Shown piece after piece: positions 2,458 through 60,246 of a stretch of DNA of 64,000 nt. The first letter of the stretch is position 1; each line of letters begins with the position of its first letter. Under the pieces are notes generated by a model. It was given only the letters and a program-made list of their open reading frames with translations. It made no database searches and had not been told where the DNA came from. This stretch comes from Gemmatimonadales bacterium (GTDB lineage Bacteria; Gemmatimonadota; Gemmatimonadetes; Gemmatimonadales; GWC2-71-9). The translations under genes and the position numbers were made by a program. The stretch lies in the NCBI GenBank assembly GCA_039917855.1, contig JBDSIR010000098.1, positions 13,000 through 76,999 on the forward strand. Direction: 5' to 3'.

Positions 2458-3684
2458 TCAGGGGTGTTGCACGAGGTGCTGCGGCGAGTAGAGCATCGCG
2501 GCGAGTCGGGCCCGCTCACGGTTGAAGTCGGCCCGCGCGTCGATCGCGACGGGGGCGCCATCGGCGGCCTTGATGGAGCGCGGGTCCCGGGCCATTCCCC
2601 CTACCCGGAACTCGTAGTGCAGGTGGGGTCCGGTGGAGAGACCGGTGGATCCGACCGCACCGATCCGCGCTTCCTGCTTGACCCGTTGCCCAATGCGGAC
2701 GTCGATGCGCGAGAGGTGCCCATACCGGGTGATGATCCCGTTGGCGTGCCGGAGCTCGACCAGATTGCCGTAACCGCCGCTCCGGCCGGCGCGCATCACC
2801 AGACCGTCTCCGGCGGCCATCACCGGCGTGCCCATGGCCGCGGAGTAGTCGAGTCCTTCGTGCTTCTTCCAGGTCCCCAGGATCGGGTGGGTGCGACCCC
2901 CGAATCCCGAAGCGAGCCGGCGGAACTGGAGCGGGGCCCGGAGGAAGGCGCGACGGAGCGACTTTCCCTGGTCGTCGTAGTAACCACCCGCCGTGCCGGG
3001 ACCGTCGAAGCGGAACGCAGTGTAATCGCGCCCTCCGACCACGAGATCGCCGGCGAGGACCCTGCTGAACCGGACCTCGCCCTGAGGCGTGGTCATCCGC
3101 TCGACCAGGAGCCGGTAATGGTCGCCCGGCCGGATGTCGCGGGTGAAGTCGATCTCCCACGCGTAGACGTCGGCCAGCTCCCAGGCGAGCGCGTCGCGCT
3201 GCGACTTGGGCAGGAGCGAATCGGGGATGCTCCTGTCGAGCGCCTGGTAAAGTGTGTTGTCGATCGAGCCTTCGACCCGCACGATGCTCGGCCGCCAGTC
3301 GATCGGGACGGCAGCGGCCATCCAGGCCGAATCGCTGAAGGCGATGGTGGCCCGCTGTTCGCGCGACAAGCGGAAGGTGACCTCCGCCGGATTCGAATCG
3401 CTCACGTGGCGGCGGAACTCGAAGACCGTCCCCGGGCGCATCCGCCGGAGGTCCACGGCCAGTTGCGCGGCCACCGCGGTGAATTCCGCACCGGTGACCC
3501 GGTTCCGGGCGAAGAGACCCGAGAGGGTCTCGCCGGCACGCAGCGTGTCCACGGTCTGCACCCACGGGATCGCGACCACGGCCGGAGACACCAGCGGGCG
3601 GGGCCACGGCCAAGCACCGCGGGCCCACGCGATCAGCGCGAGCCCGACGATGCATGCAGGAACGAATCGCGTGAAGCGCGCCAT
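2458..3684 (-). CDS. M23 family metallopeptidase (EnvC/NlpD-like) with N-terminal membrane anchor
   Basis: C-terminal M23 motifs HEGLDY, GYGNLVELRHANGIITRYGHL, GSTGLSTGPHLHYEF. N-terminal hydrophobic segment. The ATG at 3684 shares 1 nt with the ftsZ stop (TGATG). Confidence 0.85.
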   Translation of the reverse strand: MARFTRFVPACIVGLALIAWARGAWPWPRPLVSPAVVAIPWVQTVDTLRAGETLSGLFARNRVTGAEFTAVAAQLAVDLRRMRPGTVFEFRRHVSDSNPAEVTFRLSREQRATIAFSDSAWMAAAVPIDWRPSIVRVEGSIDNTLYQALDRSIPDSLLPKSQRDALAWELADVYAWEIDFTRDIRPGDHYRLLVERMTTPQGEVRFSRVLAGDLVVGGRDYTAFRFDGPGTAGGYYDDQGKSLRRAFLRAPLQFRRLASGFGGRTHPILGTWKKHEGLDYSAAMGTPVMAAGDGLVMRAGRSGGYGNLVELRHANGIITRYGHLSRIDVRIGQRVKQEARIGAVGSTGLSTGPHLHYEFRVGGMARDPRSIKAADGAPVAIDARADFNRERARLAAMLYSPQHLVQHP

Positions 3685-8167: not shown

Positions 8168-9292
8168 TTAATGAATCTTCGGGAGTTGCGAAAGAGCTTG
8201 CCCTCCCAAAAGTGTCAATAAATGTGACACTATGGCGTCGACGGCGTGGGGTCTTCCGCGCGCTTTGGCACGGGCCGCCATCGTCCGGCGGCGCCCCTCG
8301 TCTCCCAACAGCTCACCGATGATCCTCCCGAGGGCCAGGGTGCTGAGGCGGGACTGCGGCAGATGCACCGCCGCGCCTGCCACCTCGAGGGCGACCGCAT
8401 TGCCGGTCTGATGGTCCGCCGCCGCGGTGGGGAGCGGGATCAGGATCGATGGGATCCCCCAGGCACAAAGCTCCGCACCGGTCATCATTCCTGCCCTGGA
8501 AACAGCGATATCGGCCACCGCCAAGGCATCGGCCATCGGGTCGATGAAGTCATGGACCTGCACCACCGGCGCCCGATGGTGCTTGGCGAACTCGGCATGG
8601 CTCCCCCGCCCCGTGGCCCAGATCACGACGCACTTCTCGGCACCCCCCGCCTCGATCCACCCCGCCACTGCCCGATTGATCGCCACAGCGCCCTGACTCC
8701 CGCCGGTGATGAGAACCACCGGTTTCGAGCCATCGAGGCCGAAACGCTTCAGCGCCCCCTCGCGCCGCGCCGGATCGGGCGGAACGATCGGGTTGCCTGT
8801 GTCCCAGCACTTCGTCTTCGGCCCGAATATGAGGCGTTCCTTAGCTTCCGGTAGCCCGAGATAGACCTCATTGACCCGGTCGGAGAGCCAGCGGGTCGCG
8901 AGACCGGGGAGGGCATTCTGCTCCTGGATCGCGCTCGGAAGTCCGCGCCGCCCGGCGAACCAGACCGCCGGCGCCGAGGCGTAACCACCGGTCCCCACCA
9001 CCAGCGCCGGCCGCTCCTGGTCGAAGATGCGGCCAAGCTCGCGATAGACCTGCCACGCCACGAGGGGGAGGCGGGCGTTCCTCCACCACTGGTGGCGATA
9101 GAGCGGTTCGATGGAAAGGAGATGATGCCGGAAATTGCGGGTAGGGAGGAGCTGTGCTTCGATGCCGCGGGTGGCGCCGATCATCACCGGCTCGATGTCC
9201 GGTCGCTTGGCCCGGAGCGCCTCGGCGATTGCGAGCGCCGGCATCAGGTGGCCACCAGTGCCGCCGCCGGCGATGAGGATCCGGGTGGTCAC
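8168..9292 (-). CDS. murG: undecaprenyldiphospho-muramoylpentapeptide beta-N-acetylglucosaminyltransferase
   Basis: RILIAGGGTGGHLMPALAIAEAL N-terminus. Start reset to the GTG at 9292 (residue 43 of the track ORF); the upstream part is encoded by repeats. Confidence 0.92.
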   Translation of the reverse strand: MTTRILIAGGGTGGHLMPALAIAEALRAKRPDIEPVMIGATRGIEAQLLPTRNFRHHLLSIEPLYRHQWWRNARLPLVAWQVYRELGRIFDQERPALVVGTGGYASAPAVWFAGRRGLPSAIQEQNALPGLATRWLSDRVNEVYLGLPEAKERLIFGPKTKCWDTGNPIVPPDPARREGALKRFGLDGSKPVVLITGGSQGAVAINRAVAGWIEAGGAEKCVVIWATGRGSHAEFAKHHRAPVVQVHDFIDPMADALAVADIAVSRAGMMTGAELCAWGIPSILIPLPTAAADHQTGNAVALEVAGAAVHLPQSRLSTLALGRIIGELLGDEGRRRTMAARAKARGRPHAVDAIVSHLLTLLGGQALSQLPKIH

Positions 9293-9310
9293 TCGGCCCC
9301 CCGGGACGGC

Positions 9311-9338
9311 GTGAGCGGTGAGCGGTGAGCGGTGAGCG
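9311..9338. repeat. tandem heptamer array (GTGAGCG)x4
   Basis: Four perfect consecutive GTGAGCG units, read directly, 19 nt upstream of the murG start. Confidence 0.95.
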
Positions 9339-9400
9339 GTGGGTGCACTGCTTGAGTTCTCACGAGCTGACCTGAACGCCGCTGAGCGCCGGCAGTGGGA

Positions 9401-9443
9401 GGGGGCGTGAGCCCCCATGAGCCGAGTGGGGGCGTGAGCCCCC
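9401..9443. repeat. two direct copies of the 16-nt hairpin GGGGGCGTGAGCCCCC (27-nt period)
   Basis: GGGGGC-GTGA-GCCCCC occurs at 9401-9416 and 9428-9443, each preceded by GTGGG. No U-tract follows on the coding strand, so this is not a canonical terminator. Confidence 0.9.
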
Positions 9444-9451
9444 GAATATCG

Positions 9452-9482
9452 GTGCGGCCGCCGGCGATCAGGATGCGGGTGG
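9452..9482 (-). repeat. 31-nt duplicate of the murG 5' coding end (relic)
   Basis: gtgcggccgccggcgatcaggatgcgggtgg (9452-9482) versus gtgccgccgccggcgatgaggatccgggtgg (9258-9288). Identity is 28/31 by hand alignment, 194 nt apart. It encodes TRILIAGGRT versus the genuine TRILIAGGGT. Confidence 0.8.
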
Positions 9483-9514
9483 GGCGGTCGGGCGGTCCGG
9501 CGGTCGGGCGGTCA
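9483..9514. repeat. tandem octamer array (GGCGGTCN)x4
   Basis: ggcggtcg ggcggtcc ggcggtcg ggcggtca, read directly. The last unit contains the stop codon of the lipoprotein gene. Confidence 0.95.
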
Positions 9515-10210
9515 GGGGCCATAGCTGGTCAGCTCGATGGAACGAAGGCGTCGCGTCACCGGAGGCCTACTCGGGGCAGCGTACGGACCGGGCGGTGGGT
9601 CGAAATGCAGGGTCAGCCCGTCGGAGGGTGAGGGATCGCCACTCTCTTCGCAAAACATCAGGTCCAAAGACGAATCCACCTGCGCCGGATCGACCCTGAG
9701 TGCTCTGCTCACAACTTCAAGGGTAGCCCCGACTCGCAGCGCCCCTCCGAAAGCCAATGCGCTGTCCGACGTGAAGAGCCGCTCGAGACGGTCATTTCGC
9801 CGGTTGACTGTAACCTCCGCATGCCGGAATTCCAGAAACCTGATCGGGTATCTGCCGCCATCATCCTCGCTCGAACCATCCTTGCTCCGGGCTGGGGCCC
9901 CGAATGCTCGGAGCAGTTCGCGCTCGGAACTCCAAAAAGAGACTTTGCCGGCCGTGCCGAACGTGCGATCGGTACACTGCGGGCCCTCGGCTGGCGCATC
10001 AGATTGGGGCTCTCCAGGCGGGGAATCCGTGGTCTTGGGGCGCGAACGGAGCGAAAAGCCCGGATCGACTGCAATAGGCGGGATCGCCGCGAGGGCCGCG
10101 GAATCACTCGTCACCGATGCTCCGCGACGATTCGAGCACCCGCATGCCAACAGAAGGCCCAGCGCGCCCCAAACGTGCCATCTGGCCGCCGGACCACCTG
10201 ACCTCCTCAC
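9512..10210 (-). CDS. predicted lipoprotein of unknown function inserted between ftsW and murG
   Basis: In-frame tail of the 639-aa track ORF. The GTG at 10210 forms a GTGA overlap with the ftsW stop. N-terminus VRRSGGPAARWHVWGALGLLLACGCS has a basic n-region, a hydrophobic core and an LLAC lipobox. No recognisable family. Confidence 0.6.
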   Translation of the reverse strand: MRRSGGPAARWHVWGALGLLLACGCSNRRGASVTSDSAALAAIPPIAVDPGFSLRSRPKTTDSPPGEPQSDAPAEGPQCTDRTFGTAGKVSFWSSERELLRAFGAPARSKDGSSEDDGGRYPIRFLEFRHAEVTVNRRNDRLERLFTSDSALAFGGALRVGATLEVVSRALRVDPAQVDSSLDLMFCEESGDPSPSDGLTLHFDPPPGPYAAPSRPPVTRRLRSIELTSYGP

Positions 10211-11388
10211 TTCCGACCACCTGACCGCCCGACCGCCTGACCGCCCGCGCGCCCCCGCCTCCCCCGCTGCCTGCCGATCGAGAGCAGGATCCCGGTCGCG
10301 AGCAACGAGATCATCAGGCTCGACCGTCCGTAGCTCATGAACGGGAGGGTGAGCCCCGTGGTCGGCATCATCCCCATCGTCACCGCCATATGGAGGAACG
10401 CGGTGAACCCGACGCCGGTCGTGATCCCCACCGCGAGGTATTGCCCGAAGGGATCGGGCGCGGTGCGCGCGATCCGGTAGCCGAGCCAGACGAAGAGCGC
10501 GAAGAGGAAGATGATCGCACAGACGCCGACGAACCCCCATTCCTCGCCGATGGAGCTGAACAGGAAGTCGGAATAATTGTACGGCAGGTACCCGAGCTTC
10601 TGTTGGCCCTGGCCATAGCCGACGCCGATGAGCTGGCCGCTGCCGAAGCCGATGAGCGACTGGTTGATCTGGAAGCTCGCCGCGTCGCTCGCCTGGCCGG
10701 GGTTGAGGAAGGTGAGCACGCGGGCGAGACGATATTGCCAGTTCTGGATGCTGTAGAACAGGAGCGGCACCGCGGCCATGCTGAGCAGCAGGAAGTGGCC
10801 GATCCGCGCTCCGGCGCTGAACATCACCACGCCGGCGAGGAAGGTCACCAGGATCGCCATCGAGAGGTTCGGCTCGAGGAAGATCAGCAGCGCCACGAAG
10901 CCGACCACGACGAGGAAGGGGAAGAGTCCCTTCTTGAACTCCCGGATCTGGGCCCCCTTCTTGGCGGCGAGCATCGCGCACCAGATCACGATGACGAGCC
11001 GGGCGAGCTCGGAGGGCTGGAAATTCACCGGCCCCACATCCACCCAGCGCCGTGCCCCGTTGATCGAAGGCGCGATGCGATCGGTGCCCGGCAGGATCGG
11101 GATCAGCAGGAAAACGATGGTGGCGAGAAGCATCGGCCAGGCGAGCTTCTGCCACAGGTGATAGTCGAGCCGTGCGGCGACCAGCAGAAGGATCCCCCCC
11201 AGTGCGGCACCGGTGGCCTGCCGCAGCGCGAAGCCGAAGCCGATCGAGTCGCCGGCGTTGTTGGTCTGCAGGCTCGCCGCACCATACGTGCTCGCGATGC
11301 CGAACACCACCAGAATGGCGGTGACAACGCCGAGGAGCCGGGTCTCCCAACGCAGCTCGCCAGGATGCCGGATCACGGCGCCGGTCAT
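10207..11388 (-). CDS. ftsW: SEDS peptidoglycan glycosyltransferase FtsW
   Basis: Polytopic FtsW/RodA/SpoVE protein with QPSELARL and LPFMSYGRSSL motifs; dcw position. The Arg/Gly-rich C-terminal tail (GGQAVGRSGGRK) is encoded by an octamer repeat array. Confidence 0.93.
   Translation of the reverse strand: MTGAVIRHPGELRWETRLLGVVTAILVVFGIASTYGAASLQTNNAGDSIGFGFALRQATGAALGGILLLVAARLDYHLWQKLAWPMLLATIVFLLIPILPGTDRIAPSINGARRWVDVGPVNFQPSELARLVIVIWCAMLAAKKGAQIREFKKGLFPFLVVVGFVALLIFLEPNLSMAILVTFLAGVVMFSAGARIGHFLLLSMAAVPLLFYSIQNWQYRLARVLTFLNPGQASDAASFQINQSLIGFGSGQLIGVGYGQGQQKLGYLPYNYSDFLFSSIGEEWGFVGVCAIIFLFALFVWLGYRIARTAPDPFGQYLAVGITTGVGFTAFLHMAVTMGMMPTTGLTLPFMSYGRSSLMISLLATGILLSIGRQRGRRGRAGGQAVGRSGGRK
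10214..10245. repeat. tandem octamer array (NGACCGCC)x4, inverted relative to 9483-9514
   Basis: cgaccacc tgaccgcc cgaccgcc tgaccgcc, the reverse complement of the GGCGGTCN family. Lies inside the last codons of ftsW. Confidence 0.9.
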
Positions 11389-12740
11389 CGGGCCGCCACC
11401 CAGGCCCGGAACGTGGCCCCGCGCTCCTCATAGTTCTTGAACATGTCGTAGCTCGAGCAGGCCGGACTCAACAGCACCGCGTCTCCCGGCTCGGCCAATC
11501 CCGCAGCGGTGCGCAGCACGTCATCGAAGTCGCTCCCCAGCCGGATCACCTTGAGCTTGGCCTTGAGGTCCTGCTCCACCTGCGCTCCCGCCTCGCCATA
11601 CGCGATCACCGCCTTGCACCGCCCCCCCGCCGTCTCGGCCAGCCGAGTGTACGGCTCCCCCTTGTGGCGCCCGCCGAGCAGGAGGATGAAGGGGCGCTCG
11701 AGCCCGCGCACCGCTACCTCGGTCGACGCGATGTTGGTCGCCTTGGAGTCATTGATCCAGAGGACGCCGTTCACCTCGCCCACCGGCTCCATCCGGTGCG
11801 GCAGCGGCGAGAAGGTCCGGAGCCCCTCCGCGATCGTCGCGTGCGCGACCCCGACGCGGTCCGCCACGAGCATCGCGAGCAGGGCGTTGGCGACGTTGTG
11901 GTCGCCGAAGAGCGGGAAGCTCGACCGCGGCGCCACCGGCACTTCACCCAGCATCAGGCGGTCCACCGGCCGATCGAACCAGGCATCGGCTTTGCCCCGC
12001 GTCGAGAAGCGCAGGTGCGTCCCCGGGACCTCGCTGATCATCCCGCGCGAGATCGGGTCGTCGGCATTGCTGATCCAGAGCGAATGCTCATCCGCATTGA
12101 GGAAAAGCCGCGCCTTGTCGGCGTAGTACGCCTCGAGATCCGGATAGGCGTCAAGATGATCCGGGGCGAGGTTGGTCAGCGCCCCGATGGTGGGCTTGAG
12201 GCTCGGCATGTCATGCAACTGGAACGACGAGAGCTCGATCGCGAGCCACTCGGGACGCTTCGGCTCAAGCGCCACCGCGCTCAAGGGGGTGCCGATGTTC
12301 CCCGCGGCGGCAGCGGCGATCCCGCCGGTCTTGAGCAGGTGCCCGACCAGCGCGGTCGTGGTGGTCTTGCCGTTGGTCCCGGTGATGCAGGCGGTCTTGA
12401 TCCCCGGCATCGCCAGTAGCCCGAGCTCCGCCTCCGCGAGTTGTGGCACGCCGGACTCGAGCGCGGCCTTCCGGGCCGCCGTCGTCGGATTGACGCCGGG
12501 CGACACCACCGCGCGTTGGGCCTTCCCGATCCGCTGGAAGTCGTGCCCCTTGGTCTGGACCGTGGCGCCGAGTTGGCGGAGTCCCTCGATCTCCTCCGCG
12601 CTGGCTCCGCTGCCGGCATCCGAGGCATAGACGATGAGTCCCTCCCGCCGCAGGAGACGCGTGGCGGCGAGGCCGCTCTTCCCGAGCCCGATCACGGCGA
12701 TCTCGCGCCCGTCGGCGCGCCAGGCGTCGAATGGCGTCAC
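11385..12740 (-). CDS. murD: UDP-N-acetylmuramoylalanine--D-glutamate ligase
   Basis: IAVIGLGKSGLAATRLL and ITGTNGKTTTTAL. Start reset to the GTG at 12740 (GTGA overlap with the mraY stop). Confidence 0.92.
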   Translation of the reverse strand: MTPFDAWRADGREIAVIGLGKSGLAATRLLRREGLIVYASDAGSGASAEEIEGLRQLGATVQTKGHDFQRIGKAQRAVVSPGVNPTTAARKAALESGVPQLAEAELGLLAMPGIKTACITGTNGKTTTTALVGHLLKTGGIAAAAAGNIGTPLSAVALEPKRPEWLAIELSSFQLHDMPSLKPTIGALTNLAPDHLDAYPDLEAYYADKARLFLNADEHSLWISNADDPISRGMISEVPGTHLRFSTRGKADAWFDRPVDRLMLGEVPVAPRSSFPLFGDHNVANALLAMLVADRVGVAHATIAEGLRTFSPLPHRMEPVGEVNGVLWINDSKATNIASTEVAVRGLERPFILLLGGRHKGEPYTRLAETAGGRCKAVIAYGEAGAQVEQDLKAKLKVIRLGSDFDDVLRTAAGLAEPGDAVLLSPACSSYDMFKNYEERGATFRAWVAAR

Positions 12741-20198: not shown

Positions 20199-20303
20199 CG
20201 TCGTTGGTCATTGGTCGTTGGCTGCTCCGGCCCAGGTCCATCCGCTTCCGAGAACGACCAGCGGCCAGCGACCAACGACCAACGACCAACGACCAACGAC
20301 CGC
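20199..20303. repeat. repeat-armed hairpin: (TTGGTCR)x3 arm, ~33-nt loop, (CGRCCAR)x7 arm
   Basis: cgtcgttggtcattggtcgttgg (20199-20221) is complementary to cgaccag cggccag cgaccaa x4 cgaccgc (20255-20303). It fills the gap between the stop of the 580-aa gene (20305) and tRNA-Asp. Confidence 0.9.
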
Positions 20304-47675: not shown

Positions 47676-50090
47676 CTACGGCCTCGGGATGGCCGGCGCC
47701 TGCTCCTGCAGCAGCCGCTGTCGCACCAGATCGGCCGCGGCCTGAAGCTGGGAGTCGGGGCGGATCCGGATGGCAAGCTCGAGGTACTTGAGCGCGGTCT
47801 GCCCGTCGCCCCGGCTGTCGGCCGCGACGGCGAGGACGAGGACCGGCTGCTGGAGATTGTTCGAGACCACTTCGGCCGCGCTTTCGAGCCTGCGCCGGTG
47901 CGCCATCGAATCGAGCCCCGCCCAGCGATACACCTCATCGACGAGGCGGGTGGTCGCCGGCAGGTCGACGAGCACGCCATTCAGGCTTCGGGGCGCGAAG
48001 CGGTGATCGGTGCTGTCGGGAAGCGCCGGCTCGACCATGTTGGCGAGCCCCTGCTGCACGATGTAGGGATCGAGCCCCAGAAAATCCCGCCCTGCCGAGA
48101 CCGACCAAGCGATGGGGCGACGACCGAGGTTCTGCTGGATGATCCGGAGCACGCCGATGTCGTTCGGCGCGAGTACCGCACCCGCCGGGATCACATGGGC
48201 GATCGGGCCGAGCTGGACCGGGGTGTTCTCACGGACCGGGTGCAGCACGCCGACCACACCGTCGATCTCGGCGTCGGTCATCGTGTGGACCGGCCAATCG
48301 GGTCGAGCCCCCCCCAAGCCGCGCCAGATCGGCGCCGATGCCGAATCGACGAAGGTCCGCGTCGGGTGGTCCCGCAACTGCTTGAGGTACCAATTGGTCT
48401 GGGCCAGCGCGAGGCAGACGATCGTGACGTCCGGACGGAGCCCCTCCACCTCCTGGGCGTACCAGAGCGGGAAGGTGTCGTTGTCGCCAAAAGTGATGAG
48501 GATGCCGTAGGGCGGCACCGAGTTCAGCACGTCATAGGCGAAGTCCCGCGCCAGCCACGCCACCGGTCGCACGGCTCGGCTCGCTTCGGCCCAGTTGGTG
48601 CCGATCGGGATGAGGCAGAGGGCGAGCACGGCCCCCGAGGCCAGCGGCCGGATCCTTCGCCAAGGCTCAGGACGTGGGCCCGCGCCCACCGACTTGAACG
48701 TTTTCGCTGCCAGGAGCACGACGCCCATTCCCGCCCAGAGACCCCAGACCACGAAGCTCACGAGGAAGAAGTAATCGCGCTCACGCACCTCGTGCTGGCC
48801 GAAATTCGGGAAACGGTCATAGCCCAGGCTGAACCCCGGCTTGAAGTTCATGTAGGCCACGAGACCGAGGCCGGTGGTCAGGAAGAGGACCGTGAGCATC
48901 CCCCACCCCGCCCGGTCTGCCCGGCGATGGGCGACCGCGCCGAGCACGCCGAGGAGGGTGTAGAGCGCGGCAAAGGGGGCGCGGACAAACCACTCGGTGA
49001 AGCCCATCCCCCACTGCCAGAAGAAGTACTGGAAGTAGTTGACGAGCTGCAGCCCGATGATGATGGGCGAGCGGCCCGGGTTGCCCGCACCGTGCTGGAC
49101 GGTGGGATCGTCGAACGGCCCGCGCAGCGGGTACTGCTTGCGGCGGATGACGTCGAGGAGGCTCTGCCAATTGTCGGGCTGAGCCTCGTTCAGGATCGGG
49201 TGCTGGCCGGCGCGGAGGTAGAGAAAGAGGTAGGAGGTGATCCCGATGACCGAGACCGCGAGCGCCACCGCGGCGAACGCACCGCGGCCGTGGGTCATCG
49301 CCCAGACCGCCGCCACGACGAAGCAGGCGGCGCCGAAGCCGCTGAGCCAGATGTTGCCCAGGCCCAACCCGATGAGGAGAAGCCAGGTGCCGGCGACGAC
49401 CGCGGCCGTCGCGTGCTCCCGCGAACGCTCCGCCGGATCCTTGAGCGGCGACTCGCGCGATACGATCACGAGGAATGTCACCACCGCCGGCCCGACGAGT
49501 AGGGCCAGGAGGTGGTTCCCGATCGACAGGCCCGCGAGGTAGAGCACCAGCAGCAGGGTGCGGTCGGCCTTGGCGGTGCCGCGCTGTTCACGCCACCGGA
49601 GCATCAGCCAGCAGATGAATGAGATCACGAAGACCGCGATGGCGTACACCTCGGTCTCATTCGAATTCTGCCAGTTGGTGAAGGTGAAGGCCCCCGCGAG
49701 TGCGGCGGCACCGGCACCCAGGGGTACCAACCATCGTGGCGTTTCGGCCTCGGCGATCGCCGGGACGCGACGGAGCGCCTCCCACGCTACCAGTCCAAGG
49801 GCGGCGGTACCGGCAGCGCTCGCGACCGCCGTAAGCAGGTTGATCCGCCAGGCCCAGCTCCCCACGACCAGGAGACTGCCCCACACGTGCGCGAGCATCA
49901 CCCAGAGGGGGGTACCGGGAGGATGCGGGATGCCGAGGATCTTCGACGCTGCAAGGAACTCGCCGGCATCCCAGAGCGTGACCGTCGGCGCGAGGCTGGC
50001 CACGAGGAGAGCGAGGGAGACGGCGAACAGGGCGAGGGCGAACCGCCAGCGGGCGCGAGCGGTAGGGCGGTCAGGCGGCAAGGCGGTCAT
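47676..50090 (-). CDS. DUF2723 / GT-C-fold membrane glycosyltransferase-like protein with C-terminal TPR-like region
   Basis: About 11 predicted hydrophobic helices. N-terminal TVTLWDAGEFLAASKILGIPHPPGTPLW is the DUF2723 (TMEM260-like) hallmark. 804 aa. Confidence 0.75.
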   Translation of the reverse strand: MTALPPDRPTARARWRFALALFAVSLALLVASLAPTVTLWDAGEFLAASKILGIPHPPGTPLWVMLAHVWGSLLVVGSWAWRINLLTAVASAAGTAALGLVAWEALRRVPAIAEAETPRWLVPLGAGAAALAGAFTFTNWQNSNETEVYAIAVFVISFICWLMLRWREQRGTAKADRTLLLVLYLAGLSIGNHLLALLVGPAVVTFLVIVSRESPLKDPAERSREHATAAVVAGTWLLLIGLGLGNIWLSGFGAACFVVAAVWAMTHGRGAFAAVALAVSVIGITSYLFLYLRAGQHPILNEAQPDNWQSLLDVIRRKQYPLRGPFDDPTVQHGAGNPGRSPIIIGLQLVNYFQYFFWQWGMGFTEWFVRAPFAALYTLLGVLGAVAHRRADRAGWGMLTVLFLTTGLGLVAYMNFKPGFSLGYDRFPNFGQHEVRERDYFFLVSFVVWGLWAGMGVVLLAAKTFKSVGAGPRPEPWRRIRPLASGAVLALCLIPIGTNWAEASRAVRPVAWLARDFAYDVLNSVPPYGILITFGDNDTFPLWYAQEVEGLRPDVTIVCLALAQTNWYLKQLRDHPTRTFVDSASAPIWRGLGGARPDWPVHTMTDAEIDGVVGVLHPVRENTPVQLGPIAHVIPAGAVLAPNDIGVLRIIQQNLGRRPIAWSVSAGRDFLGLDPYIVQQGLANMVEPALPDSTDHRFAPRSLNGVLVDLPATTRLVDEVYRWAGLDSMAHRRRLESAAEVVSNNLQQPVLVLAVAADSRGDGQTALKYLELAIRIRPDSQLQAAADLVRQRLLQEQAPAIPRP

Positions 50091-50890
50091 GGCGTTGGGA
50101 TCGGCGTCACAGTATCGGAGAGAGCGGCCGCGTCGAGGCGCGAATACGCCAGCGCGCGGCGCACCTGATCGTGATCAAGGTCCCGGTAGAGCCGGCCGCG
50201 GACGGCGAGGGCGAGCTGTCCCGTCTCCTCGCTCACCACGAAGACGAGCGCATCGGTCTCTTCGGAGAGGCCGAGCGCGGCGCGGTGGCGGGTACCGAGT
50301 GAGCGGTCGGCCAAGGGGGCCTGGGTGAGCGGCAGGATGGCGCCCGCGGCGGCGAGGCGCTCACCCCGGATGATCACCGCCCCGTCGTGCAGGGGGGACG
50401 GCGGCGTGAAGATGCTCTGCAGCAGCTCGGCCGAGACGGCGCCATCGATCGAGGTGCCGGAGGCGGCCACCTCTTCGAGCGCCGCATCGCGCTCGACCGC
50501 GATGATCGCGCCGATCGAGCTGCGTGACAGCCGCACCAGCGCCTCGGCGATCTCCTCCGCCACCGCGGCGCTGGCACCTCCCACGATGAACCGGAAGGGA
50601 CGGGCCCGACCGAGCCGGGCGAGGGCCTGTCGGAGTTCGGGCTGGAAGACGACGGCGATGGCGAAGACACCGTACGTGAAGAGCGCCGAAAGGAGGTAGG
50701 TGACCATGGTGAACTTGACCAGCGAGGCGGCGAGCCACCCCGCGAGCAGCACCAGGAGTCCGAAAACGATCTGGAGGGCGCGGGTCCCGGCGAGGAAACG
50801 GAGGAGCCGGTAGATCAGGAACGCCACCAGCAGGACCTCCACGGCATCGCGCCAGTGGGGCGCGAGAAGTCTCAGTTGGTCGGGAGGCAT
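50087..50890 (-). CDS. cdaA: diadenylate cyclase CdaA (DisA_N/DAC domain)
   Basis: Three N-terminal TM helices plus a DAC domain: GAIIAVERD, PLHDGAVIIRG, GTRHRAALGLSEETDALVFVVSEETG. Confidence 0.88.
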   Translation of the reverse strand: MPPDQLRLLAPHWRDAVEVLLVAFLIYRLLRFLAGTRALQIVFGLLVLLAGWLAASLVKFTMVTYLLSALFTYGVFAIAVVFQPELRQALARLGRARPFRFIVGGASAAVAEEIAEALVRLSRSSIGAIIAVERDAALEEVAASGTSIDGAVSAELLQSIFTPPSPLHDGAVIIRGERLAAAGAILPLTQAPLADRSLGTRHRAALGLSEETDALVFVVSEETGQLALAVRGRLYRDLDHDQVRRALAYSRLDAAALSDTVTPIPTP

Positions 50891-52055
50891 CAGGACACTC
50901 CGAGGGCGTGGACGATGGCCAAGGCATCGCGGACCGCGGCCGGGGCGTGCACCCGGAACAGCCGGGCCCCGCGTTCGGCGGCCACCCCGCAGGCGGCCGC
51001 AGTGGCGCGATCGCGATCGTCCGCGGCGCGGCCGGAAAGTTCACCGAGGAAGCGTTTCCGGGAGAGCCCCACGAAGGTGGGGCGCCCGAGTGCCACGACC
51101 GCACCGAGCCGATCGAGCAGAACGATATTCTGGGTCGGCGTCTTGGCAAAGCCGAACCCCGGATCGACCGCGACCGCGTCGAGAGGGATCCCCGCGGCAG
51201 TGGCGCGCTCGATGGCGTCGCCCAACTCACGGCACACCGCCGGCGCCACCCCGTCGGGGTACTCGGCGTGGGTGTATGAGGCGAGCTCGGCGAAGGAGCC
51301 GCGTGAATGCATCACCACCACCCCTGCCCCCGCCTCGGCGATGACCCCCGCCATCGCCGCATCGAATCGGAGGCCGCTTACCTCATTCACGATCCACGCT
51401 CCGGCCGAGAGTGCGGCGCGAGCGACGGCGCTCTTGGTGGTGTCGATCGAGAGTGGGCCAGTGGGCCAGTGGGCCGAGAGGGCCTCGATCACGGGGATCA
51501 CCCGGCGCATCTCTTCTTCTGCAGGGACCGGCACGGCGCCCGGACGGGTGGATTCCCCGCCGATGTCGAGCATCGTGGCCCCTTCGTCGAGCAGGCGGAG
51601 GGCGTGCGCCACCGCGGCGCCGGTGTTCGCGTGCGCGCCGCCATCGCTGAAGCTGTCGGGGGTGACGTTGACGATCCCGACGATGACGGGGCGGTCGAGC
51701 GGGATGGTGCCGCGCCGGGTGGGCCAGTGGGCCGGTGGGCCAGCGGGCAGGGCCAAGCCGACCGCGACGGCCAATTCCGAAAGCTCCGGCGGTAAGATCC
51801 AGGGGCGGGCGAGGGCGGAGACCCGGGCAGCGGTCCCCGCGATCAGGGCCCAGTCATCCCCGGTGAGGAGATCGAGCCCGGCGTTGAGATTCCACCGCTT
51901 GAGCGCCTCAAGGACGGGCGGGCTGATGCCCGCGACAACTAGCGCCACCGGGCCGAGTCCGTCAGCTGCGGACTCGGCCCGAGATTCATCCCAACCGTGG
52001 CCGCGAAGGAGCTCGGCGAATGCCGCGCGGCGGTGGACGGGGAGGAAGCTTGCCT

Positions 52056-52059
<4 letters not shown>
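50890..52059 (-). CDS. folP: dihydropteroate synthase with a ~110-aa N-terminal extension
   Basis: Pterin-binding domain IVGIVNVTPDSFSDGG, MLDIGGESTRPG, GFGFAKT. The first ~110 aa are not part of the canonical DHPS domain. Confidence 0.88.
51453..51476. repeat. tandem octamer array (GTGGGCCR)x3 inside folP
   Basis: gtgggcca gtgggcca gtgggccg. The 24 nt stay in frame and encode HWPTGPL. Confidence 0.9.
51719..51750. repeat. tandem octamer array (GTGGGCCR)x3-4 inside folP
   Basis: gtgggcca gtgggccg gtgggcca gcgggcag, encoding GPPAHWPT at the junction between the N-terminal extension and the DHPS domain. Confidence 0.9.
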
Positions 52060-55917: not shown

Positions 55918-56035
55918 GGTTAAATATGGGCGGATGGGCGCACGGGCGGAGGGGCGCAGGTTCGGCTTGCTGTCTTAGGCTCCGACCTAGTAGGATGAAG
56001 TCGGCAGTTCGCGACTCTCACCACCACTGAACCCA

Positions 56036-57278: not shown

Positions 57279-57308
57279 CCGGCAACTACCTCATTCGGAA
57301 TAGCGGGG

Positions 57309-57367
57309 TGTTGCGTGTTGGGTGTTGGGTGTTGGGTGCGGATGCGGATGCGGATGCGGATGCGGTG
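57309..57367. repeat. composite microsatellite (GTGTTGS)x4 followed by (TGCGGA)x5
   Basis: gtgttgc gtgttgg gtgttgg gtgttgg, then tgcgga x4 and tgcggt, read directly in the pdxH-GNAT intergenic region. Confidence 0.95.
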
Positions 57368-57417
57368 ACTACGGGCCGACGTGGCCGATGGTTGCACCTT
57401 GACCTGCCCCGCCCCCC

Positions 57418-57435
57418 GCACCCTGCACCCTGCAC
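57418..57435. repeat. (GCACCCT)x2.5 array, partly complementary to 57327-57341
   Basis: gcaccct gcaccct gcac immediately after the pdxH stop. ccgcaccctgcaccc pairs 13/15 with gggtgttgggtgcgg. Confidence 0.8.
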
Positions 57436-58481: not shown

Positions 58482-58493
58482 GCAGGAAAGTTG

Positions 58494-58533
58494 GGCGGTC
58501 GGGCGGTCGGGCGGTAGGGCGGTCAGGCGGTCG
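58494..58533. repeat. tandem octamer array (GGCGGTMN)x5
   Basis: ggcggtcg ggcggtcg ggcggtag ggcggtca ggcggtcg, the same unit family as 9483-9514 and 10214-10245. 13 nt upstream of the apaG start. Confidence 0.95.
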
Positions 58534-58575
58534 GGCCGGCCGTTCGGAGGGGGAACTGCCTCAGCGTATGGGTTC

Positions 58576-58752: not shown

Positions 58753-59235
58753 ATGCCCAAGAAGCTCTATTCCACCCCCGAGATCGAGGTCTCCTGGGAG
58801 CCCGATCTCTGCATCCACTCCGGGCGCTGCGTGATGGGCTCGGCGCGGGTGTTCAATCCTCGGCGCCGGCCCTGGATCGAGCTCCAGCATGAACCAGCGG
58901 AACGGATCCTGGGGATCGTGGCCAACTGCCCTTCGGGCGCGCTCAAGGCGCGGCGGTTGGGCGATGGGGAGAGGGGACGGAATGATGAGGGGACCGACCC
59001 GCGCGTTGGCGGGACCGCGGAACAGTCCGGGCAGCCGCAGAGCAAGTCCGTCTCGATGCCGGTCATCACCGCGTCGAAGAATGGTCCCCTGCTGGTCGAG
59101 TTCGCCTGCGTGGTGAAGGACGCCGAGGGAAATGTGGTGCGGGAGATCCAGAAGGGGGCATTCTGTCGGTGCGGTCAGTCGAGCACGAAGCCGTTCTGCG
59201 ATGGGACGCATCGCAAGGTCGGGTTCGTGGGGTGA
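58753..59235 (+). CDS. fusion of a divergent 4Fe-4S mono-cluster domain and a CDGSH iron-sulfur domain
   Basis: N-terminus: EIEVSWEPDLCIHSGRCV...ANCPSGAL. C-terminus: CRCGQSSTKPFCDGTH (CDGSH motif). A low-complexity linker joins them. Confidence 0.75.
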   Translation: MPKKLYSTPEIEVSWEPDLCIHSGRCVMGSARVFNPRRRPWIELQHEPAERILGIVANCPSGALKARRLGDGERGRNDEGTDPRVGGTAEQSGQPQSKSVSMPVITASKNGPLLVEFACVVKDAEGNVVREIQKGAFCRCGQSSTKPFCDGTHRKVGFVG

Positions 59236-59318
59236 CCAGTGACCAGTAACCTGTGACCGGGCCGAGGGGGGAGGTCTAGGTGATGGGCCCGGTGACTGGT
59301 CACCGGTCACTGGGCACC
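59232..59318. terminator. repeat-armed hairpin (33-bp imperfect stem of GTGACCR heptamers) between convergent genes; likely bidirectional terminator
   Basis: gtgacca gtgacca gtaacct gtgaccg ggcc ... ggcc cggtgac tggtcac cggtcac tgggcac. 28/33 complementary by hand. Spans exactly from the CDGSH stop to the DCC stop. Confidence 0.6.
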
Positions 59319-59320
59319 TG

Positions 59321-59788
59321 TCAAGGGAGAAATCGAACCCGCTCGTTGGGACTCGGCACCAAACACTCCGGCCCATTCCGCGTGAGCTTGTGGCGGTGGC
59401 GGGCGATCAGGTCGTAGAGGGGATCGCGCAGAACGCGCGGAATCAGCGCGGCAAGCCGCGCCACAACGGACCACCCCCCTCCGAGGTATCGTCCCACCGC
59501 CAACGCCGCCGCCGACCGTACCCGCACCACCTCGAGCGCCTTCTGCGCCTCATGCGCCTCCGGACTCCCTTCCACCCACACCACCGAATCCACGTTAGCA
59601 AGCTCAGGATGCCGGGCGAGGATCGGGCGCGCCGTCTCCCCCTGCAGCGCCGCAAAGCGAAGGGTCCCCCGACGGTCACGCCGGAGGACCCACTGGACGC
59701 TCGATGCGCAAAAGCCGCACGTGCCGTCGTAGAGGAGAAGCGTGGGCCGGTGGGCAAGCGGGCCGGTGGGCCAGGCGCTCCCCTCCAC
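59321..59788 (-). CDS. thiol-disulfide oxidoreductase DCC family protein (DUF393)
   Basis: LLLYDGTCGFCASSVQWVLRRD and DPLYDLIARHRHKL. Start proposed at the GTG at 59788, preceded by AAGGAGGG with 5-nt spacing. The track start is a TTG at 59860 inside the upstream gene. Confidence 0.75.
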   Translation of the reverse strand: MEGSAWPTGPLAHRPTLLLYDGTCGFCASSVQWVLRRDRRGTLRFAALQGETARPILARHPELANVDSVVWVEGSPEAHEAQKALEVVRVRSAAALAVGRYLGGGWSVVARLAALIPRVLRDPLYDLIARHRHKLTRNGPECLVPSPNERVRFLP

Positions 59789-59830
59789 GCGGCCCTCCTT
59801 GCCCACTGGCCCACTGGCCCTCTGGCCCAC
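59742..59830. repeat. repeat-armed hairpin of GTGGGCCR octamers (4+4 units) enclosing the DCC RBS and start codon
   Basis: gtgggccg gtgggcaa gcgggccg gtgggcca (59742-59773) versus ttgcccac tggcccac tggccctc tggcccac (59799-59830). The 24-nt loop holds the GTG (59786-59788) and most of the SD. Confidence 0.85.
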
Positions 59831-60246
59831 TACGGGTGGAGCTCCTCCGGCCCCTTCCAATCCATCCCCAGGATCACCGTCACGTCCACCCGCCGGGTCG
59901 AGTCGGGGAGCGACTCGATCTTCCCCATTCCCAGGAGCTTCCGGACCTCCTCGGCGCGCTCGCGGGAGCCACGGCGAAGCACCAGGCGGGTCGAGTCGGC
60001 GGTGGTGTCGGCGTTCCCGAAGAAGACCACGTCGATCCCCTTCCGGCGGAGCACGCGGGTCCCGACCCGCGCCAATCCCTGCTTCCCCGACGCGTTCAAG
60101 ACCTCGACCTCGATCCGGTCGTCCCCCTCGGGGACGGGGTAGAGATGCCCGCTCACCCGGTCCGTGCGCCCCGCGCGGATCAGCATCGCGACCGCCGCAA
60201 AGGCGACGAGCACACCGAGGACGGCGGTCGTACGGGAGCGGATCAC
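59830..60246 (-). CDS. LytR_C (LytR cell-envelope-related, C-terminal) domain protein with N-terminal TM
   Basis: TM TTAVLGVLVAFAAVAMLI, then IEVEVLNASGKQGLARVGTRVLRRKGIDVV..GNAD...VDVTVILG. The GTG at 60246 forms a GTGA overlap with the upstream stop. Confidence 0.6.
   Translation of the reverse strand: MIRSRTTAVLGVLVAFAAVAMLIRAGRTDRVSGHLYPVPEGDDRIEVEVLNASGKQGLARVGTRVLRRKGIDVVFFGNADTTADSTRLVLRRGSRERAEEVRKLLGMGKIESLPDSTRRVDVTVILGMDWKGPEELHP

Follow-up and report, generated by a model that had tools for sequence, protein, structure and literature searches.

The ftsW-murG junction is a variable slot in one clade of Gemmatimonadales, and in the genome analyzed here this slot holds a gene for a putative lipoprotein. 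We analyzed a 64,000-nucleotide (nt) stretch of contig JBDSIR010000098.1 (positions 13,000 to 76,999; here called the window), which derives from a soil Gemmatimonadota bacterium and matches metagenome-assembled genomes (MAGs) from soil. The division and cell wall (dcw) cluster has one of the most conserved gene orders in bacteria, and its genes ftsW and murG usually form a tight, overlapping pair. We favor, with a probability of roughly 0.6, the following reading. The junction is a slot for accessory genes, of which the window contains a real one with a BamE/BLIP-like product; the short tandem arrays around it are dispersed in the genome and partly translated; the 5′ end of murG was changed in a separate event; and recombination would have been anchored in the 5′ sequence of murG. 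On this reading, one clade tolerates and repeatedly reuses the junction for small envelope genes, which are fitted in by 4-nt overlaps. It offers a natural system for studying the entry of accessory genes into essential operons that stay intact.

A lipoprotein gene between ftsW and murG

The gene order on the minus strand is ftsW (11388..10207), the lipoprotein gene (10210..9512), and murG (9292..8168). The translation of ftsW has 393 residues (Pfam FTSW_RODA_SPOVE, E 6e-86). The current murG starts with GTG and encodes 374 residues with the Pfam domains Glyco_transf_28 and Glyco_tran_28_C; the product matches protein P0055 at 100%. Between them lies the 232-codon gene that a preliminary description of this locus had reported as an interruption of the dcw order, and its coordinates and minus-strand location were verified. 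It starts with GTG at 10210 and ends with TGA at 9514-9512. The start codon (10210-10208) and the ftsW stop codon (TGA, 10209-10207) share a GTGA at 10207..10210, as seen in the sequence and in an alignment of ftsW 3′ ends, all of which read GTGA. In the closest relatives, the counterpart of this GTGA fuses ftsW straight to murG (L075 and L078). At the other end, an ATG at 9522 overlaps the stop end of the lipoprotein gene. All slot boundaries are 4-nt stop/start overlaps (GTGA or ATGA) or nearly so.

The start codon was placed by its GTGA overlap with ftsW, by the signal peptide that it yields, and by an alignment with the related junction L079, and not by the list of open reading frames (ORFs). 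Without this assignment the frame would comprise 639 codons, as it continues upstream across ftsW in an alternative phase (9512-11431, minus strand). With a GTG that overlaps the ftsW stop and a stop that overlaps the ATG of the former murG start (see below), the lipoprotein gene is presumably cotranscribed with the dcw operon and translated by coupling. A scan of positions 9100-10500 revealed no promoter and no terminator-like site.

The 232-codon ORF is a real gene under purifying selection. Its only close homologue, found by a word-indexed homology search, is protein P0001 encoded on contig L043 (54-58% identity). P0001 starts with a GTG at L043:5875, comprises 197 residues, and has its own lipobox (...VVALALFAAAC). 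Comparison of the two genes gave a dN/dS (ratio of nonsynonymous to synonymous substitution rates) of ~0.13, and third codon positions differed twice as often as first or second positions. The gene had been described as less GC-rich than its flanks, and this was confirmed: its GC content is 64.1%, compared with 66-67% in ftsW and murG and 69.1% in the whole window. The GC content at third codon positions (GC3), 0.665 versus 0.90 in ftsW and 0.80 in murG, also distinguishes it from its neighbors.

The earlier statement that the product belongs to no recognizable family was half right. Pfam and NCBIfam contain no model that matches it (Pfam at E ≤ 1), and no identical protein is on record. An exhaustive HMMER profile search nevertheless revealed an unnamed family with at least 54 cluster representatives, mostly of 135-190 residues and with signal peptides. 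The family motifs are C..LG.P..EDDGG.Y..RG..VERL..PSG.RVG..C..YGP. Weak matches to CAP_assoc_N were obtained for 6 of 36 members, and one member from outside the clade (P0002) is not encoded within a dcw cluster.

The product had also been described as a lipobox protein, which agrees with its N terminus, MRRSGGPAARWHVWGALGLLLA followed by C. This was read as three Arg residues, a 12-residue h-region, and the lipobox L-L-A-C. By the pattern used (basic n-region, hydrophobic h-region, and lipobox [LVI][ASTVI][GAS]C with Cys at +1), the product is a predicted bacterial lipoprotein and substrate of signal peptidase II. The signal peptide is followed by a ~55-residue linker of low model confidence and by a C-terminal domain (residues ~78-232), which comprises two alpha-beta repeats and contains the conserved Cys residues C79 and C187. 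An AlphaFold2 model based on a 36-sequence alignment had a predicted local distance difference test (pLDDT) score of 81, with values >90 over residues 80-230, and comprised two repeats of a helix and 3-4 strands. It replaced a model from a 2-sequence alignment, which was discarded at a pLDDT of 53.

The top Foldseek match of the model was the Escherichia coli lipoprotein YfeY (2qzb; E 1.6e-4, TM 0.50), followed by CAP_assoc_N domains (N-terminal in CAP/SCP proteins) and BLIP-like 3d4e. The family profile also matched BamE chains (E 3e-4). The modeled fold thus resembles the alpha-beta-beta-beta repeats of BamE, BLIP, and YfeY, a likeness of fold and not family membership; no Pfam-level match to SmpA_OmlA (PF04355) was found for the window protein. 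Like YfeY, BamE, SmpA/OmlA, BLIP-like, and CAP_assoc_N proteins, it is predicted to be a small protein, secreted or lipid-modified, that folds into tandem alpha-beta-beta-beta(-beta) repeats. Unlike YfeY, BamE, and the BLIP-like proteins, to which its identity is 9-15%, it has no Pfam match and has motifs of its own (EDDGG, RG..VERL, C...C, and a YGP end). To our knowledge, YfeY has no known function. The family sometimes travels with the lysozyme-inhibitor-like protein LprI, which by analogy suggests a role in cell-wall protection. Our guess would be a periplasmic binder or inhibitor that acts in envelope or peptidoglycan defense, as suggested for its slot-mate LprI.

The ftsW-murG junction in related genomes

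We compared ~60 related ftsW-murG junctions; a metagenome scan with MurG contributed few close relatives to this set. Outside the window, the lipoprotein gene was present only in L043; of the related species genomes in which both ftsW and murG were found, all lacked it (38/38). The closest relatives without an insert have a GTGA overlap of ftsW and murG (L075 and L076, MurG identity 88%; L078, 85%; L080, 75%), and all deeper Gemmatimonadales have the plain overlap. Within the clade with FtsW identity of at least ~56%, the junction varies. The preliminary description had considered that all relatives might carry the gene as an ancient, stable arrangement; the gene turned out not to be universal among them.

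Several different genes occupy the slot. It holds an LprI gene (PF07007) in L077 and L079. In L043, the MurG of which is 78% identical to that of the window, three genes stand in a row and encode a transmembrane (TM) protein, the lipoprotein homologue, and LprI. The slot of a less closely related Gemmatimonadales MAG holds a gene of the low-molecular-weight phosphatase/ArsC type (LMWPc, PF01451; L007 5543-5968). The GC3 of the cassettes is below that of the flanking core genes in every lineage (0.665-0.83 versus 0.80-0.94).

Different cassettes can share their upstream sequences. The window and L079 are near-identical over ~60 nt, which comprise the ftsW-end array, the GTGA, and the first cassette codons (MRRSGG...VWGAL), whereas the mature proteins differ, that of L079 being LprI. 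Two different cassette genes follow a palindromic multi-hairpin element of ~140 nt (L043 5768-5905 and 6484-6625; L077 ~3445-3590), which supplies the start codon and the first ~10 codons (MTARPCRF/YAA) of both. In L077, the GTG of this element reads GCG, and the LprI frame is not called as a gene. Rfam matches in L043 were rejected as spurious miRNA-precursor matches on both strands, which merely flag the long palindrome. The L047 contig is too short to show the slot content; upstream of its array-headed murG (positions 1-133), an AT-richer stretch follows a GC hairpin and corresponds neither to ftsW nor to any cassette seen elsewhere.

In other lineages (L001/L029, L005, L006, L014/17/20, and L051), the junction contains inverted pairs of tandem heptamers or octamers with 38-57-nt loops, and the unit differs by lineage. 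The array junctions are located at L001 5134-5245, L029 5883-5994, L005 5904-6001, L006 5891-6001, L051 4902-5004, and L068 ~967-985. The left unit starts with the ancestral GTGA overlap (GTGACCR, GTGACCT, GTGAGCG, or GTGAACG), and the right arm, just before the murG start, is the inverted complement of the left unit. Lineage-specific units in a common architecture suggest either repeated homing or in situ amplification combined with the making of inverted copies. When the identity of murG and ftsW to six relatives was scanned in sliding windows, no clear mosaic breakpoint emerged.

Tandem arrays and the two murG 5′ ends

As had been noted, the lipoprotein gene is bracketed by octamer arrays. 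Tandem Repeats Finder (TRF) placed the upstream (GGCGGTCN) array at 10213-10247 on the minus strand (core, 10214-10245; inverted repeat arm, 10220-10255). Degenerate units continue as far as 10184, so that the periodicity extends beyond the ftsW stop and covers ~9 codons at the start of the lipoprotein gene (10184-10206). Alignment with the FtsW ends of L079, L077, and L075 supports the delineation of this arm. The downstream array, (GGCGGTCN)x4.5, lies at 9478-9513 by TRF (inverted repeat arm, 9481-9516) and reads (NGACCGCC)x4 on the minus strand; its first unit contains the TGA of the lipoprotein gene. The 36-nt arms are 92% complementary and 703 nt apart.

Both arrays have counterparts in the coding sequences of relatives. 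The upstream array encodes the last ~12 codons of FtsW, and its translation yielded the repeat-encoded tail reported before, GGQAVGRSGGRK followed by the stop. FtsW C-terminal tails are octamer-periodic across the clade, including the insert-free relatives (GGCGCAGG in L075/L078; GGGCGGAN in L077). The live murG genes of L047 and L077 begin with ATG/GTG-ACCCCCGACCGCC(T/C)G..., and there the (NGACCGCC) array is an N-terminal MurG extension, MTPDRLAARPPDRRTVLIAGGG.... In the window, the downstream array formerly encoded such an extension, MAPDRPTAGPPDRP. On the gene strand, 9522..9452 reads ATGGCCCCTGACCGCCCGACCGCCGGACCGCCCGACCGCCCCACCCGCATCCTGATCGCCGGCGGCCGCACCGAT, an "ATG + array + TRILIAGG" head as in L047 and L077. 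A head identical in kind to the live MurG heads identifies the ATG at 9522, which overlaps the last codons of the lipoprotein gene, as the former murG start.

This ATG opens a 77-codon frame (9289..9522, minus strand; ORF list and translation) that contains the array, a copy of the murG 5′ end, two hairpins, and a heptamer array. Its TGA (9291-9289) overlaps the murG GTG and forms a second GTGA. The murG copy, here regarded as the remnant of the old 5′ end (TRILIAGGRT; 9452-9482, minus strand), matches 9258-9288 at 28 of 31 positions. The alignment score was 47, compared with a maximum of 26 in 500 shuffles; no third copy is present in the window, and the remnant has single-copy depth in run X1. 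Next to it, two copies of GGGGGCGTGAGCCCCC form a double hairpin (9401-9416 and 9428-9443, minus strand; 11 nt apart); the sequence occurs exactly twice in the window. They are followed by the heptamer array (GTGAGCG)x4.4 (9311-9341 by TRF; CACCGCT on the gene strand), located 18 nt upstream of the murG GTG. The preliminary description had already recognized the murG copy, both hairpins, and a (GTGAGCG)x4 array.

The double hairpin is a dispersed small repeat: run X1 has at least 3 further contigs with it, and its depth there is 100-228 versus 18 for unique sequence (~5-12x). Together with a unique spacer and the heptamer array, it forms a block of ~160 nt. This block and a replacement murG 5′ end split the old start from the murG body. 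When the block was compared by BLAST with the window and all loci, the heptamer array alone gave matches, and the unique spacer had no other copy. The layout recurs in L081 (MurG identity 76%), which reads ftsW, GTGA, old murG 5′ end (~45 nt), double hairpin, spacer, CTCGTGAG, and new murG 5′ end. The breakpoint is the same as in the window, and an equivalent leader frame ends in GTGA on the new murG start, but the lipoprotein gene is absent; a variant in run X4 has the same layout as L081. Thus, the duplication belongs to the ~160-nt block and not to the lipoprotein gene, and the earlier claim that insertion of the gene duplicated the murG start had to be abandoned. In this essential gene, the 5′ end was replaced rather than interrupted, and a translated leader frame was left behind. 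L043 also has a murG 5′ remnant, directly after its first cassette (30/34; score 48 versus a shuffle maximum of 28).

Two minor features were seen in this region. A 17-nt inverted repeat, 82% complementary, links the spacer (9356-9372) with the 3′ end of the lipoprotein gene (9527-9543) and is possibly due to chance. Joints from 9279 into ftsW (9279->10535 in run X2 and 9279->10650 in run X3) match over 29-32 nt on one side, and may represent unrelated genes with a GGxGG-coding motif.

The arrays are a dispersed, genome-wide family located mostly at gene ends, and not the ends of a mobile cassette. In the source metagenome, both array types of the locus have a depth of ~1000 versus 18 for unique sequence (~50-fold excess), and other contigs contain inverted GGCGGTCN arms around 30-39-nt loops. 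The octamer pattern has 24 matches in the window (5.3 expected), a number reached in no shuffle. Arrays with 7-8-nt units number 9 by strict criteria (0.1 in shuffles) and 17 by TRF, and ordinary housekeeping genes surround them. Several pair as inverted repeats with loops of ~30-50 nt (20200/20255, 59232/59289, and 59742/59801), and at least 6 of the 17 arrays abut or overlap a stop codon. The heptamer unit GTGAGCG also flanks murG in L006 and L068. Such arrays are pervasive at Gemmatimonadota gene ends and reach into the coding sequences of FtsW, MurG, and FolP. A literature search found no description of these arrays, or of an ftsW-murG slot, in Gemmatimonadota, which is not proof of novelty; the array family appears not to have been described previously for this phylum. 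Of all features of the clade, these pervasive inverted tandem arrays, some of them translated, are the most unusual.

Arrays of 3-6 copies of 7-8-nt units are located at 20200-20301, 50066-50094, 55926-55956, 57306-57435, 58493-58536, 59232-59323, and 59742-59831, and their density is especially high in the 57.3-59.9 kb region. TGA-containing heptamers (GTGACCN and GTGAGCG) provide stops in all three frames.

Proposed explanation, alternatives, and known systems

In the favored reading, the octamer arrays at the junction would be translated, upstream as the FtsW C-terminal tail and downstream, formerly, as a MurG N-terminal extension. A second, independent event would have placed the repeat block and the replacement murG 5′ end between the old murG start and the murG body, leaving the 31-nt direct repeat and the 77-codon leader frame that ends in GTGA on the new start. 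We infer that recombination was anchored in the conserved murG 5′ sequence. It could have occurred by a single crossover of a circular fragment carrying a murG 5′ copy, or by one-sided, homology-facilitated illegitimate recombination with DNA of a relative. Such recombination would add material immediately upstream of murG and leave direct repeats of the murG 5′ end, and the 3/31 mismatches between the murG copies would represent donor-recipient divergence. The recurring order of older material, murG 5′ remnant, newer material, and intact murG fits this mechanism. The direct repeats would also permit precise loss, which could account for the patchy distribution. Cassettes may in addition be exchanged via the common ftsW-end array and leader; recombination between arrays is a possible vehicle for gene swapping, as in L079 compared with the window.

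Several observations weigh against this reading. At 54-58% identity between the window and L043 genes versus 78% between the MurG proteins, ancient vertical descent with repeated precise loss fits equally well. Arrays are not needed, since the L043 homologue is flanked by the palindromic element of ~140 nt instead. A second candidate murG remnant in L043, after the lipoprotein gene, was rejected as not significant (score 16 versus a shuffle mean of 15.7). Neither a recombination intermediate nor an empty allele or donor locus was seen among assembled contigs, and none of the RNA-seq runs searched contains the lipoprotein gene. Leu at lipobox position -2 is less common. Finally, only a 103-nt unitig (9314-9416) at 2.4x depth connects 9340 with 9406, although L081 lends the layout independent support.

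An old vertical arrangement would mean that an ancestor already had the genes for the TM protein, the lipoprotein, and LprI, and that the present patchwork arose by precise deletion with no lateral acquisition. L043 holds all three genes together, the lipoprotein and LprI genes each recur at the exact junction in lineages 73-78% identical in MurG, and cassette proteins diverge more than core genes, as expected of fast-evolving residents; the direct murG 5′ repeats would allow clean loss. We nevertheless consider this explanation unlikely, though with a real chance of being correct. The low cassette GC3 in every lineage does not fit it, an unrelated LMWPc gene fills the slot in L007, all deeper Gemmatimonadales have the plain overlap, and many independent precise losses would be needed, including in the nearest relatives of the window. 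The preliminary description proposed instead a single cassette insertion, in which the inverted octamer arrays served as terminal repeats or recombination sites and the murG start was duplicated as a target footprint. The close bracketing of the ORF by the arms, the absence of the gene from close relatives, and its atypical composition are what this model would predict, and the notion of an accessory insertion stood, given the 38/38 absence and the insert-free closest relatives. The cassette carried in by arrays did not. The murG duplication and the double hairpin are present in L081 without the gene, the downstream array is a former murG head that is still live in L047 and L077, and octamer-periodic FtsW tails in insert-free relatives, together with the ~50-fold repetition of the arrays, contradict their arrival with the gene. 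There is also no direct repeat immediately outside the arms, and the L043 homologue lacks arrays. This model is largely refuted, and we regard it as improbable.

The repeats could alternatively be RNA elements whose arms and hairpins set mRNA processing, mRNA stability, or ftsW-murG coupling, with the gene merely caught inside a hairpin. The recurrence of inverted pairs with one architecture and differing units at this junction, the position of arrays at stop codons, and the fold of the leader region (-105.8 kcal/mol, z = -2.15) speak for such a role. The z-score is modest, however, and a 700-nt loop is unlikely in a functional hairpin. An Rfam covariance search of 9100-10400 gave no match at E ≤ 1, and downstream of the double-hairpin stems stand ACTCGG and TCCCAC and not the T-run that an intrinsic terminator (GC-rich stem plus U-run) would have. 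The closest relatives lack any such structure, and we consider this explanation doubtful. Formally, inverted repeats around exactly one surface-protein gene are also the architecture of an invertible, phase-variable cassette, in which recombination between the 36-nt arms would switch the gene on and off. Independent contigs were all co-oriented and no opposite-strand 9482/10213 joint was found, although assembled contigs drop minor variants. Flipping would destroy the overlaps with both neighbors and the coupling to murG, no invertase gene lies nearby, and elsewhere the arms enclose only 30-nt loops, which makes inversion very unlikely.

We consider a chimeric join at the repeats, that is, an assembly artifact, extremely unlikely. 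De Bruijn contigs do break at the arrays, as in run X2 (9483-10341), and the low-depth unitig mentioned above would be compatible with such a join. However, a 10.9-kb contig of run X1 covers 9406-11000 without interruption and with 2 mismatches, joining the remnant, the lipoprotein gene with the arrays on both sides, and part of ftsW, and the lipoprotein gene is present at 100% identity in run X3, from a second study. The L043 homologue occupies the same junction on a 121-kb contig, and overlaps exact to the codon are not expected of a chimera. A bolder, speculative proposal, which we think is probably wrong, is that inverted tandem-array hairpins are an undescribed class of recombinogenic repeats of Gemmatimonadota that home to, or arise at, stops and overlaps and become translated as tails. 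The junction would then be an integron-like slot without an integrase, in which single ORFs for secreted proteins are captured in the hairpin loop or swapped via shared arrays, leaders, and the murG 5′ end while keeping their translational coupling inside an essential operon.

The case combines features of known kinds, namely, a variable slot inside an operon, repeats akin to those described below, and an unnamed BamE/BLIP-like family. In Neisseria, the dcw cluster reportedly contains accessory ORFs (dca genes) as well as Correia and uptake-sequence elements. There, as in the window, a conserved operon is broken by lineage-specific small ORFs and dispersed repeats and varies between close relatives. 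Unlike in Neisseria, the insertions of the window clade are restricted to the ftsW-murG junction, use 4-nt overlaps, and are accompanied by partly translated tandem 7-8-mers and not by miniature inverted-repeat transposable elements (MITEs) of the Correia type. Integron arrays resemble the slot in having a fixed insertion point defined by conserved sequence and promoterless, co-oriented single-ORF cassettes that line up one after another (three in L043), apparently with the most recent arrival next to the anchor, murG. Unlike integrons, the slot has no integrase, attC/attI sites, or Pc promoter, its "site" is the 5′ beginning of an essential coding sequence, and at most 3 cassettes were seen. 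The neighbors of the lipoprotein gene are only dcw genes, and its 3′ flank consists of the array and the murG remnant, with no attC-like imperfect palindrome. Phages and integrative conjugative elements (ICEs) integrate into the ends of tRNA or protein genes (att sites) and duplicate the gene end. The murG event is similar in that a replacement gene end was carried in, the gene stayed intact, and a diverged direct repeat of ~30-40 nt was left. It differs in its insert, limited to ~160 nt of repeats or a single small ORF, in the lack of a recombinase, and in its use of the gene's 5′ end. A transposon or MITE is likewise not indicated: no direct repeat lies outside the arms, arm-like arrays occur in gene-free relatives, and the L043 homologue has no arms.

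Repetitive extragenic palindromic (REP) sequences and their REPIN doublets are high-copy extragenic palindromes mobilized by the RAYT (Y1) transposase. The double hairpin is palindromic and present in high copy number. REP, REPIN, and bacterial interspersed mosaic elements (BIMEs; PMC3116915 and PMC3333891) are, like the window repeats, short GC-rich high-copy hairpins, often in inverted pairs that are separated by a short spacer and located after genes. Unlike REP and REPIN sequences, the arms in the window consist of tandem 7-8-nt units that vary by locus and lineage, overlap stops, and enter coding sequence, and the double hairpin consists of two direct copies, unlike REP/REPIN pairs. Cyanobacteria have short tandemly repeated repetitive (STRR) sequences with heptamer units. 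Heptamer repeats are also described for Beggiatoaceae (TAACTGA; PMC4679880) and for Xanthomonas and Nostoc (G-rich; PMC4692102). These repeats and the window arrays are alike as abundant intergenic 7-nt tandems with few copies per site and many sites per genome. The window arrays differ in belonging to another phylum, in their GC-rich units, in forming inverted, hairpin-forming pairs that start at a stop codon, and in the translation of octamers as tails and heads.

Rickettsia palindromic elements (RPEs) are palindromes of 100-150 nt. Like RPEs, the octamers of the window are in-frame repeats translated in conserved proteins (here the FtsW tail, the MurG head, and two FolP sites), but they are tandem octamers. 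In folP (dihydropteroate synthase; 50890..52059, minus strand), two direct in-frame (GTGGGCCA)x3-4 arrays are located at 51452-51484 and 51719-51748 and are translated as PAGPPAHWPT and SAHWPTGPLS. Thus, arrays also enter coding sequence away from gene ends.

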